DNA of 28,168 nucleotides from a virus. The stretch lies in IMG/VR virus record IMGVR_UViG_3300027908_000023, positions 70,369 through 98,536 of that record, one strand, 5' to 3'. Both the position numbers and the translations under genes were made by a program. A model generated the notes under the pieces. The model had not been told where the DNA came from, did no database searches, and saw only the letters and a program-made list of their open reading frames with translations. Each line of letters begins with the position of its first letter. Position 1 is the stretch's first letter. Below, one piece after another: positions 7,257 through 28,168 of the stretch.

Positions 7257-7963
7257 TAGCTATCTCCTTTATCCCCCACATACTTCCCGGCGATCTCCAG
7301 ACACCGTTCCACCTTCCCAAGATCCAGCCTGTCTTCTTCGTCCCGAACTCCCGACTCCATGTCAACCCAGATTTCGCGCTCACCGACCACCTGCTCCAGT
7401 CTCTTGAGTCGCTCTTCCAGGTTGTCCGGCGATAACCCACCCGCATAGCCACACAAGAGATCCTCTGGCGGCGCGGGGTCTTCCCTGGCTGCCACGCCTT
7501 GACCACCCGAGGCATCGAAAAGCACACTGGCCTTGCCACCCTCCAGAATCTTCCGTGCCAGCACCAGCCCGGGTTGTCGATAGCTGCCGATCTGAATGAT
7601 GTATTCAGGTCCTGGTGCCAGACAAGCCGCGACGGCTTTCATGTCCGCGATCTTGTTCATCGAACGCGACACGTTGAGCTGCACCCTCTGATAGCGCGCC
7701 AACCGGATAGCGAGCGGCCACTCTCCCGAGCAGATGTCCATGACGTACCGGCCGCAAAGATGCGCGGAGATGTTCAGGAGATGCGCGTCCATCGCGTAGA
7801 ACTTCTCGCGCCATGTCAGTGATGGATAACGCGCCTTGCCGGAGCGTGAATCAGAGAAGAGGATTCCCCACTCCACATAGGGATAGCGTTCCGAGAGGGC
7901 GAACAGGTCCTCATGTTTCACCTGATCATCGGCACCGCTGAACGTGACGTGACGAAGTTTCAT
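7256..7963 (-). CDS. PRAI(TrpF)-like TIM-barrel phage protein
   Basis: VTFSGAD, EWGIL, AHLCG, LFDASGGQG, GYAGGLSPDN, WVDMESGVR; phosphate-binding end resembles PRAI. Function unknown. Confidence 0.7.
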   Translation of the reverse strand: MKLRHVTFSGADDQVKHEDLFALSERYPYVEWGILFSDSRSGKARYPSLTWREKFYAMDAHLLNISAHLCGRYVMDICSGEWPLAIRLARYQRVQLNVSRSMNKIADMKAVAACLAPGPEYIIQIGSYRQPGLVLARKILEGGKASVLFDASGGQGVAAREDPAPPEDLLCGYAGGLSPDNLEERLKRLEQVVGEREIWVDMESGVRDEEDRLDLGKVERCLEIAGKYVGDKGDS

Positions 7964-17443: not shown

Positions 17444-17547
17444 TTTCATTTAGTATTTTGCAGTTTGCATTCAGTATTTTGCATTCATAGAGCCACACGC
17501 GAAATACTGCAAAATAGAAAATGCAAAGTGCAAAAGGCAGAATTCAG
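17444..17547. repeat. 104-bp heptamer-built palindromic element, copy 1 (degenerate right arm)
   Basis: Six 7-mers TTTCATT TAGTATT TTGCAGT TTGCATT CAGTATT TTGCATT, a 20-nt loop, then six imperfect complementary 7-mers. Confidence 0.85.
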
Positions 17548-20660: not shown

Positions 20661-21193
20661 GTTGCAATCTTCCTCCCATTGCACTGGCTGTTGTTACCAC
20701 GGATCAGGTACAGGTCTATCCGCTGACCATCGGGGGTTGCAATCTTCCTGCCATTGCACTGGCTGTTGTTACTATCCAGAATCGGCAAATCGCGCCAACC
20801 TTCCAACTCTTCGCCTGGATGAATACGGATACTCAATCCTCTGGCCACCAAATCAAAGCGGCGATCAGATTCCTCTCGGCAAGGCCGTCGTGGTCCTGGA
20901 TAAACTTCGGCGCTGCGAACTGTTTCCCAGAAGCCATGAACCTTGGCGAATTTGTCCTTGCCGTCCAGCAGAATACGCTCTACTTCGATCTGTCGTAACT
21001 CCTTCAACAACGACAAGAGTTCTTCAGCATCATAGTCCGCTTCAAACCAGGATGCCAGCAGGCGAACCGCCGGGAAACCATAACCATCAACAACCTGGAG
21101 GTTAAACCCGTGTGGCTTCGGATCGTGAAAGATCAGCAGATTGAGCGCCAGCAACTCTTGCTGAATGGCGCTGACGAGTTCCGCTTCGCTCAT
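20609..21193 (-). CDS. hypothetical protein reading through the mini-array
   Basis: Start MSEAEL after GAGGAG; the repeats translate as NNSQCNGRKIAT twice. Confidence 0.55.
   Translation of the reverse strand: MSEAELVSAIQQELLALNLLIFHDPKPHGFNLQVVDGYGFPAVRLLASWFEADYDAEELLSLLKELRQIEVERILLDGKDKFAKVHGFWETVRSAEVYPGPRRPCREESDRRFDLVARGLSIRIHPGEELEGWRDLPILDSNNSQCNGRKIATPDGQRIDLYLIRGNNSQCNGRKIATSQQTLAGTVACSSVRA
20661..20772 (-). CRISPR. mini-array: two type-B repeats and one 38-bp spacer
   Basis: Repeats 20661-20697 and 20736-20772, GTTGCAATCTTCCT(C/G)CCATTGCACTGGCTGTTGTTAC; the second is identical to 27845-27881. Confidence 0.9.
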
Positions 21194-24023: not shown

Positions 24024-24344
24024 TCATCCGCACAGCGCCGCCCCCGGACAGGCCATCACTTCTTCCTCGAACAACTCCACCCTCTCCCTGGCAATCGTGC
24101 CCGTACTGGACTCGATGACCGAACAGCCGTAGCAAAACGCGACCCCACCGGCAAATCCACTGGCGATCTGTTCCACCACCACGTAGCGCGTTCCTGAAGC
24201 GCCCAGGTGATTCTTCGCCCGGTGAACCAGCACGGCACCGATCGCGTGCTTGAAACCGAGCCAATCAAGCGAGCGCTGACGTTCCGCGCTGGCAGTTGAT
24301 TCCTTGACGCGGTTGCCGTTGCTATTAGTTTTTACCACGGGCAT
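24024..24344 (-). CDS. hypothetical protein
   Basis: AAGGAG RBS before MPVVKT. Confidence 0.55.
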   Translation of the reverse strand: MPVVKTNSNGNRVKESTASAERQRSLDWLGFKHAIGAVLVHRAKNHLGASGTRYVVVEQIASGFAGGVAFCYGCSVIESSTGTIARERVELFEEEVMACPGAALCG

Positions 24345-24504
24345 GGTTTCGTCTCCTTGTGTTTGGGCCGGCTTCATATAGTTCGACCTCTGGAGATAGT
24401 CAAGGCTATTATTTTAGCGGAATCTGGATGCGGCTCAAGAGATGGCGGCGCGATTATCAGGAATGGAGAAAATGCGTGAAAGTGTAATCGCTAAAACAGT
24501 GGAA

Positions 24505-24608
24505 TTTCATTTAGTATTTTGCAGTTTGCATTTTAGATTTTGCATTGTTCAGCACATGGCTTGATGAATGCAAAATCTAAAATGCAAACTGCAAAATACT
24601 GAATGAAA
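24505..24608. repeat. 104-bp heptamer-built palindromic element, copy 2 (42-bp arms, 41/42 complementary)
   Basis: Arms 24505-24546 and 24567-24608, 20-nt loop; first 28 nt identical to copy 1. Confidence 0.92.
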
Positions 24609-24690
24609 GAAATCGCCTCCGCGCCGTCGATCGACAACGAGCCGATCCGCCGTTCGCAACGTGCGTCGCAAGGGGAGCGGAGATTGACAT

Positions 24691-24727
24691 GTTGCAACCT
24701 TCATCCCGTTACACCGGGCATTGTTAC
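24691..24727 (-). CRISPR. solitary CRISPR repeat (type C)
   Basis: GTTGCAACCTTCATCCCGTTACACCGGGCATTGTTAC, identical to 27995-28031 and 28070-28106. Confidence 0.92.
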
Positions 24728-24900
24728 GAATTTCATGTCAACTCGACGACGCAGAGGCAATGTGAAAATCCTTCGCGGTGTCCTGGAACCACAAGTTCCT
24801 TCCCCCAACCCACCTACTTGCCAAGGAAAAACCCACATGGTGCCATCGGAACGGAACGCACCACCATATGAGCCGGACACCGCGAAGAAACCAATCCGGC
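24728..24900 (-). promoter_or_regulatory. CRISPR leader-like region
   Basis: No convincing ORF; perfect 13-bp inverted repeat CTTCGCGGTGTCC (24771-24783) / GGACACCGCGAAG (24875-24887) near the repeat. Confidence 0.5.
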
Positions 24901-24972: not shown

Positions 24973-25206
24973 TTATTCCACACCATCAAAACACTTGCCA
25001 GAGTGAGCCTTTTTCTTGATCCAGTACAGCGCACTGATCGACCATCTCTCGATGATGGCACGGTTAACTTTGCCCCAATCCACCTTGTCGCGCTCGCTGG
25101 AGCGTAGCGCCAGGCAGTAGGTCTTGGCGATGTCGAGTCGCACGGAAGACGGCTCAGCGATCTCGTCAAGGAGTGTTCTTTCGCACGTCATCAATTCCCA
25201 GGGCAT
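24973..25206 (-). CDS. hypothetical phage protein
   Basis: GGAG RBS; VDWGKVNRAIIERWSISALYWIK. Confidence 0.65.
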   Translation of the reverse strand: MPWELMTCERTLLDEIAEPSSVRLDIAKTYCLALRSSERDKVDWGKVNRAIIERWSISALYWIKKKAHSGKCFDGVE

Positions 25207-27698: not shown

Positions 27699-28168
27699 GG
27701 CGCAACCTTCAGGCCGTTGCACCGGCCATTGTTACGCATCGGGGGCCATTTTGCCATACTTCTCAATCCTGCAGTTGCAACCTTCAAGCCGTTGCACCGG
27801 CCATTGTTACTGCAACGGCTTGAAGGTTGCAACAACTGAGCAGAGTTGCAATCTTCCTGCCATTGCACTGGCTGTTGTTACGAGGCGTCGGTTCGACTCT
27901 GATACCTCACCCGACCGCTGCGTTGCAACCTTCAAGCCGTTGCACCGGCCATTGTTGCCGTGAATCGCCCGCTGACCGGATTGACCAGATGACAGTTGCA
28001 ACCTTCATCCCGTTACACCGGGCATTGTTACGCCGCTGATAACGCTTGGACGACCGTGGCGCAGATCAGGTTGCAACCTTCATCCCGTTACACCGGGCAT
28101 TGTTACTTTGTACCGTTTTGCCCGTCCGGTGCGCGTCTCAATGTTGCAACCTTCATCCCGTTACACCG
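27699..28168 (-). CRISPR. CRISPR array with heterogeneous 37-bp repeats (at least 7 repeats, 6 spacers), cut off by the window end
   Basis: Repeats start at 27699, 27774, 27845, 27922, 27995, 28070 and 28143 (partial); spacers are 38, 34, 40, 36, 38 and 36 bp. The degenerate repeat at 27699 suggests the trailer end, so transcription on minus (repeat ends ...GAAGGTTGCAAC). Confidence 0.95.

Follow-up and report, generated by a model that had tools for sequence, protein, structure and literature searches.

We analysed the final 28 kb of a 98.5-kb soil phage record from IMG/VR (IMGVR_UViG_3300027908_000023, positions 70,369 to 98,536; this whole stretch of 28,168 nucleotides (nt) is referred to as the window) and found on its minus strand, at 24691–24727, a solitary 37-nt repeat of the kind that builds CRISPR (clustered regularly interspaced short palindromic repeat) arrays. 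The repeat is identical to repeats of the phage's own array, has the pseudoknot of Cas12m CRISPR RNAs (crRNAs) and lies in the loop of a stable predicted RNA fold, and the array adjoins a gene for a cognate Cas12m effector. We tentatively interpret the lone repeat as a stand-alone crRNA-like unit that would be bound and processed by the phage's own Cas12m, either targeting DNA or merely occupying the enzyme, because published Cas12m enzymes need only one repeat and 17 nt of guide. We infer that the unit would be transcribed, bound and processed, and that it might have a target.

The effector gene lies beyond the window edge, on a 132.6-kb assembly from another source that runs past that edge; where the fetched piece overlaps the window, 11.8 kb in all, the two agree at 100% identity. 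The 724-amino-acid (aa) protein encoded there matches a solved Cas12m chain (E = 4.6e-36) and, weakly, a Cas12f1-like TNB domain; it is a Cas12m (type V-M) homologue. Its nearest homologues, on the phage-like contigs L018, L019 and L020 (with DnaB, HNH, lysozyme and ParB), are 554–598 aa long and 28–34% identical to it. The main array has 13 repeats in total and reaches to 14 nt from the cas12m stop codon; its cas-distal end, at 27699–28168 on the minus strand, continues past the window edge, is composed within the window of three repeat variants (A, B and C) and is the source of the lone repeat's type. The match is complete: the lone repeat agrees at 37/37 positions with the type-C array repeats (copies at 27995, 28070 and 28143), that is, with an array adjoining cas12m. 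Along the minus strand cas12m is followed by the array, then by genes for a 120-aa protein, a RecE-like exonuclease and proteins of 387 and 77 aa, then by a gap holding the lone repeat, and finally by replication genes that include an initiator-like protein and DnaB. All of these, cas12m, array and phage genes, together with all 18 repeat copies of the phage, point in the same direction on the window minus strand, and the lone repeat is 3.9 kb downstream of cas12m and 3.0 kb from the near end of the array.

The gap is 628 nt of non-coding DNA between the 77-aa gene (24973–25206, minus strand) and a 106-aa gene (24024–24344, minus strand), with a G+C content of 49% against 58% for the genome. 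We considered whether it is coding, including plus-strand open reading frames (ORFs) of 138 and 60 aa, and rejected this reading, as it gave neither family matches nor the codon-position GC pattern of real genes. A preliminary description of this DNA had claimed a perfect type-C repeat that has no partner at spacer distance, and this proved right: local alignment of the three variants to both strands of the 160 nt on each side detected no partner, no second repeat and no anti-repeat, the flanks scoring no higher than genomic background. No full or partial repeat is thus present within 100 bp, the distance by which the RNA anti-CRISPRs (Racrs) of other phages are called solitary. The single repeat at 24691–24727 recurs in independent assemblies made from several samples.

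Three lines of evidence agree that the crRNA sense strand is the window minus strand. First, the minus-strand repeat forms helix 1 between nt 10–13 and 20–23 and helix 2 between nt 15–19 and 31–35, followed by A-C, which is the register of the solved PmCas12m and MmCas12m2 scaffolds and likewise of the Tf and Ms repeats; counted from the repeat end, the pairs are (−28..−25)/(−18..−15) and (−23..−19)/(−7..−3), then A(−2) C(−1). These pairs form in 98.4% of cells over the phage's seven distinct repeat variants, with two compensatory pairs in helix 1, and sliding the partners by 1–3 columns lowers pairing to 14–41%. Second, this strand is also that of the effector gene, and the distant phage-borne Cas12m locus L019 is arranged alike, with its array downstream and co-directional and a repeat that ends like published Cas12m repeats. 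Third, the degenerate repeat of the array stands at its cas-distal end. The lone repeat is in agreement with type V-M crRNAs in every structural feature tested. The plus-strand sense had been suggested by an end palindrome that resembles the 5′ end of published repeats; it was overruled by the solved scaffolds, by L019 and by the pair counts. One observation points against the minus-strand sense: the cas-distal array spacer, at 27736–27773, matches the phage's own DNA at L014:4031–4059 over 29 nt (its plus-strand 5′ 29 nt), and this self-match is PAM-proximal (next to the protospacer adjacent motif, PAM) only in the plus-strand sense. In the minus sense none of the nine PAM-proximal seed positions matches, so that the guide would leave its own phage alone. 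The self-match falls on a 20-bp GC-rich hairpin that resembles a terminator, covering its descending arm, its T-tract and the sequence downstream; the site is upstream of a 50-aa gene and precedes cas12m by about 2.4 kb.

The fold around the repeat extends well beyond the complementary flanks noticed in the preliminary description. Both of the pairings proposed there exist, 24684–24691 with 24734–24741 (8 bp, perfect) and 24662–24668 with 24747–24753 (7 bp), and the flank-to-flank duplex of −25.4 kcal/mol is equalled by 0.15–0.8% of shuffled flanks; in this GC-rich phage genome it is also equalled at 13–17% of random positions, so that the two short stems alone are only modestly significant. 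The stronger signal is a 150-nt fold of several helices, domain 2 (24612–24761), which on the minus strand reaches −76.9 kcal/mol (z-score −6.6; 0/200 shuffles as good) and on the plus strand −53.6 kcal/mol (z −1.3), a strand difference of 23 kcal/mol that is about two standard deviations past that of random windows. Domain 2 is closed by a 19-bp helix (24743–24761 with 24612–24630) and has three arms: P2, with the repeat in its apical loop, P3 (24646–24681) and P4 (24631–24645). Minimum-energy folds of both strands place the repeat in a large loop, as had been claimed, whereas one of the two stems supposed to frame it, 24662–24668/24747–24753, is supplanted on the minus strand by the closing helix of the larger fold. 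Helix P2 itself has 9 bp, its 5′ strand (24734–24742), which holds a TTGACA box, pairing with 24683–24691 to close the repeat loop; direct reading of the sequence shows six nt between this strand and the repeat (24728–24733), ending in T-T-C. When the 37 nt of the repeat were removed in silico, domain 2 kept a z-score of −6.7 and a 10-bp hairpin with a 7-nt loop remained in place of the arm.

Directly upstream on the minus strand lies a second structured element, domain 1 (24769–24889, 121 nt), a three-way junction with many G-U pairs on that strand and a 15-bp closing helix (−61.8 kcal/mol, z −5.8). The 13-bp inverted repeat already pointed out upstream of the repeat (24771–24783/24875–24887) is real and forms part of this closing helix. 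An Rfam scan of the gap, domain 1 included, yielded no family above threshold, and no notable structure was present around the other repeat units outside the array.

Published Cas12m enzymes need no trans-activating crRNA (tracrRNA) and cut their own precursor, 2–3 nt into the repeat and 17–18 nt into the guide, to give a crRNA whose repeat part is about 33 nt long and whose guide is about 17 nt long; the crRNA forms a 17-bp heteroduplex, and Cas12m binds PAM-flanked DNA (5′-TTN or 5′-YTN) without cutting it, thereby blocking transcription. Given self-trimming and the absence of a tracrRNA, one repeat followed by any sequence would constitute a complete guide gene if it were transcribed in sense. 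For the lone repeat we envisage that the minus strand is transcribed, together with the upstream block or from an unrecognised promoter, and that the phage Cas12m binds the repeat pseudoknot and cleaves at two points, a few nt inside the repeat and about 17 nt along the sequence that follows. The product would be crRNA-like and about 50 nt long, its fixed guide running from window position 24690 to 24674; these 17 nt directly 3′ of the repeat (24674–24690, minus strand) are native phage sequence and the only possible guide. The unit's own locus would be protected, because the end of the repeat stands at the PAM position. A site lacking the repeat would read TTC and then the 17-nt guide, T-T-C being the minus-strand sequence at the 5′ junction; this repeat-less allele would thus be a complete target and is the sole fit of the guide known to us. 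If a target exists, the likeliest would be a related phage that lacks the insertion; if there is none, the unit would occupy Cas12m as a non-targeting RNA.

Several results weigh against a stand-alone crRNA-like unit. Target searches covered 113 kb of the phage assembled from identical contigs, with the host and the last 19 kb or so of the 132.6-kb assembly beyond their reach; within these 113 kb no target of the guide was found at two or fewer mismatches, the best match having three seed mismatches and no PAM. IMG/VR contained no YTN-flanked exact match to the guide, and the whole gap had no match among GenBank phages. The TTC junction is suggestive only, since a YTN triplet arises by chance once in eight and the other three repeat loci outside the array lack one; PAM-like triplets at the 5′ junction (one of four units, the lone repeat) thus occur at the chance rate, and the PAM of the phage Cas12m is itself assumed from relatives of 34% identity or less. 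In the predicted fold guide nt 1–8 are paired in helix P2 and nt 10–15 in helix P3, which could block use of the guide. Within the gap no sigma-70-like promoter was detected upstream of the repeat on the minus strand, although this consensus may not be that of the host, and no phage late-promoter motif was found in the window; the nearest sigma-70-like minus-strand promoters stand just past the downstream palindrome, at 24480–24453 and 24438–24411. The TTGACA that the preliminary description placed in a leader, the box in P2, has no usable −10 partner.

Searches for relatives were likewise negative. A search with the repeat pattern returned nothing from IMG/VR and only the same phage, at 100% identity, from JGI metagenomes; locus searches with the 387-aa neighbour or the Cas12m protein gave no relatives (the 387-aa neighbour has one distant, non-syntenic homologue); and neither the gap nor the array had a BLAST match among GenBank phages and plasmids. 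No relative by which conservation or covariation might be judged was found in the collections searched. L019, the sole related contig with a visible array, has no solitary repeat, and two of the three related contigs stop about 170 nt past cas12m, a remainder in which no repeat is visible. Finally, the perfect identity of the lone repeat is equally explained by a recent neutral insertion.

Exact insertions are suggested by the other repeat units of this phage. The 113 kb contain 18 repeat copies in a single orientation, and four loci lie outside the array: the lone repeat at 24691–24727, a two-repeat mini-array at 20661–20772, a type-B unit at genome position 7773–7809 and another type-B unit at L014:162–198. 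The three solitary copies are all perfect, and no decayed copy was found in the 113 kb. When exactly the 112 nt of the mini-array are excised, two called genes merge into a single 330-codon open frame; as the genome stands, the downstream half-gene starts at a TTG inside the mini-array repeat, behind a ribosome-binding site created by that repeat's single base change, and no full-length homologue of the split gene was found. The unit at 7773–7809 (L010) follows the fifth codon of a small gene; once exactly its 37 nt are excised, an ORF of 45 codons reappears that has a strong ribosome-binding site and shares a stop/start overlap with the gene after it. Judged by these junctions, the repeat units look like exact insertions into pre-existing sequence, and the lone repeat, an exact unit in a hairpin loop, fits the pattern. 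The unit L014:162–198 is followed on the sense strand by 40 nt (L014:199–240) that read like tRNA positions 36–73 (T-arm and the 3′ strand of the acceptor), with no 5′ half; ARAGORN calls no tRNA gene there with or without the repeat, and a search with one genome per species gave no exact match to the T-arm/acceptor sequence. This tRNA-like sequence is reminiscent of attP cores and also of the tRNA-directed delocalized crRNAs found in CRISPR transposons.

The lone repeat could accordingly be a neutral by-product, copied from the array by illegitimate or recombinase-assisted recombination and tolerated in a loop, where any binding by Cas12m would be incidental and of no benefit; we regard this as possible, if on balance doubtful. 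It would account for an exact repeat sitting in the loop of a fold that is equally significant when the insert is removed, a RecE-like exonuclease is encoded beside the array, and the lone unit showed neither target nor promoter. The interruption of a 330-codon frame by the mini-array and of a 45-codon ORF by the unit at 7773–7809 also looks like spread regardless of the host sequence. Against neutrality, all four extra-array loci kept the orientation of the array, which would happen by chance once in 16, the solitary copies are all perfect whereas repeats within the array vary, and the base change in the mini-array gave the downstream half-gene its ribosome-binding site, so that this insertion would be old enough to have been adapted to.

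A decoy of the Racr kind, in which the unit occupies Cas12m without guiding it while its flanking helices lend the RNA stability and hide the guide, appears rather unlikely. Such an RNA might lower or time the activity of the Cas12m that the phage encodes; alternatively it might inhibit a related Cas12m that recognises the same repeat and belongs to the host or to a competing element. Solitary intergenic repeats of phages inhibit CRISPR systems, type V-A included, as does non-targeting crRNA, and solitary repeat units (SRUs) adjoining cas12a have been proposed as inhibitors of their cognate effector. The very stable fold that embeds the repeat and the want of a target for the guide suit a decoy, and the sequestration of the guide seed in P2 and P3 could mask the guide and so favour a decoy-like role. 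The region within about 250 bp upstream, where Racrs have a promoter, showed none, a weak objection given that the sigma-70 model may not suit the host; no acr-like neighbour was recognised, and no other system with the same repeat was found in viral, metagenome or genome collections. The cognate effector belongs to the phage itself, which makes a plain anti-CRISPR role paradoxical. Of the decoy or Racr-like RNA put forward in the preliminary description, the idea of a crRNA-like or decoy RNA, with its repeat displayed in a loop, stands, whereas a classical host-directed Racr is not the natural reading for a phage that encodes the cognate Cas12m.

The repeats might also behave as small insertion units, each of which would make the adjoining sequence a fixed guide for Cas12m, one matching the repeat-less allele only; we consider this decidedly improbable. 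The lone repeat is the sole unit whose repeat-less allele would have a canonical TTC PAM. Were the idea true, Cas12m would silence or out-compete relatives that lack the insertion, or would drive the insertion's spread.

That the crRNA steers Cas12m back to its own locus, blocking transcription that passes through the gap toward the replication genes, is very unlikely. The plus strand does read TTC followed by 7 nt identical to guide nt 1–7 at 24732–24741, just upstream of the repeat in the minus direction; Cas12m silences by binding, and partially matching crRNA-like RNAs regulate promoters in other systems. Yet only 8/17 guide positions match there, against a Cas12m heteroduplex of 17 bp, the TTGACA box has no −10 partner, and the 7-nt match simply follows from the hairpin stem. 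The earlier suggestion of an autoregulatory guide directed at its own leader rests on this short PAM-proximal match and was not borne out. The further suggestion of an empty array, a leader and one repeat awaiting spacer acquisition, can practically be set aside: a perfect repeat does lie in a non-coding region, but no Cas1 turned up in the 98.5-kb record, the genes listed around cas12m include none, the stretch downstream of the repeat forms an integral part of the fold rather than being leader- or spacer-like, and the independent assemblies from several samples all retain the single repeat.

The surroundings of the unit include further features. An AT-rich palindrome with 47-nt arms occupies 24505–24608, at a distance of 83 nt from the repeat in the downstream minus-strand direction, with z about −13 on both strands; the hairpin described earlier is thus real, its arms and distance having been given as 42 bp and 82 nt. 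A second copy stands at 17444–17543 (each about 104 nt, first 28 nt identical), and the two bracket the block of replication genes. Both fold at z about −13 on either strand and attract spurious microRNA-like Rfam matches. From the layout we infer that the repeat lies within the 3′ part of a block running from cas12m through the array to the recombination genes, the palindromes marking operon boundaries; the palindrome at 24505–24608, before which this block has its 3′ end, probably ends it as an operon boundary or terminator. Elsewhere in the phage a promoter-like motif, TAAAT and CGAA separated by 12–16 nt, occurs 24 times on the minus strand and 0 times on the plus strand (genome 8863–62030, L010–L013), with one further copy about 10.5 kb past the window end; the window has none, and the cas12m, recombination and replication region therefore appears to use other promoters. 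In the array a 219-nt block of three repeat-spacer units is tandemly doubled (L014:8800–9230), either a real duplication or an assembly artefact. The same phage encodes, among its structural genes, a 389-aa TnpB with IS605 OrfB and Cas12f1-like TNB domains (L012:7281–8450, genome 47281–48450).

Solitary phage repeats acting as anti-CRISPR decoys against host systems are known already, as are the stand-alone guides of CRISPR transposons; the present case joins a solitary perfect repeat to a phage-borne, non-cutting Cas12m. If the unit is active, the phage would use hard-wired Cas12m guides or decoys outside the array, a repeat held in the loop of a stable hairpin would offer a simple natural design for expressing a single guide for a compact DNA-binding effector, and the way in which repeats leave arrays would become testable. 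If it is a neutral insertion, it still documents the exact spread of single repeats within one genome.

Among known systems, the unit shares with the type V-M crRNAs (MmCas12m2, GoCas12m, Ms/Tf and PmCas12m) the 37-nt repeat, the pseudoknot register, the A-C end, an effector on the same strand, and a design without tracrRNA in which one repeat and about 17 nt make a full guide RNA. It differs in standing alone inside a larger folded RNA with native phage sequence as guide, and the phage Cas12m is larger, 724 aa against about 550–610 aa in relatives of at most 34% identity; type V-M systems have already been described on plasmids and in some prophages. With Racrs (Camara-Wilpert et al. 2023, PMC10651486) it has in common a solitary, intergenic, perfect repeat on a phage that could compete with guide RNAs for the effector. 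Racrs are by definition not associated with cas genes and mimic the host's system (PMC10651486), whereas this phage has a cognate cas12m and array 3–4 kb away on the same strand, and the Racr literature searched reports no type V-M Racr. The SRUs beside cas12a (Shmakov et al. 2023) are likewise repeats outside an array, within a few kb of a type V effector and with no conserved targeting pattern; those are only weakly similar to array repeats and directly beside cas12a, whereas here the repeat is identical, and the array and four genes lie between it and cas12m. The crRNA-like regulators of CRISPR-cas loci (Shmakov et al. 2023) have a partial match to a cas promoter, which this unit lacks: such regulators, among them CreA, scaRNA/tracr-L and regulatory mini-arrays, match a cas, toxin or defence promoter over about 10 nt or more next to a PAM and have a second, often degenerate, repeat or an anti-repeat; the only PAM-flanked match found here is the 7 nt beside the unit itself, and neither strand of the flanks yielded such a second element. 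CreA of CreTA is also a repeat-derived RNA that uses the effector for a purpose other than immunity; in CreA two repeat-like elements enclose a pseudo-spacer whose match is the promoter of the neighbouring toxin gene, and the phage unit has neither a second repeat nor a toxin gene, and the proposal of a CreA-like RNA fails on this point. TnpB with its guide RNA, policing sites without the transposon, follows a logic similar to that of repeats spreading as insertion units, which would here be carried out by a CRISPR descendant of TnpB. By analogy of architecture the nearest match to the lone unit is provided by the delocalized crRNAs of CRISPR-associated transposons (CASTs; V-K and I-F, PMC11656645), which likewise combine a single repeat and a short fixed guide outside the array with a mobile element and a non-cutting type V effector. 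In CASTs the repeats are atypical, the guide homes next to tRNA or glmS, and the units act with transposition proteins (PMC11656645); the phage repeat is typical, and the general Pfam lists of the phage regions contain no Tn7-like transposition genes, no search aimed at them having been made. The sister unit at L014:162–198, with its sequence resembling the 3′ half of a tRNA, offers the closer parallel to these delocalized crRNAs.

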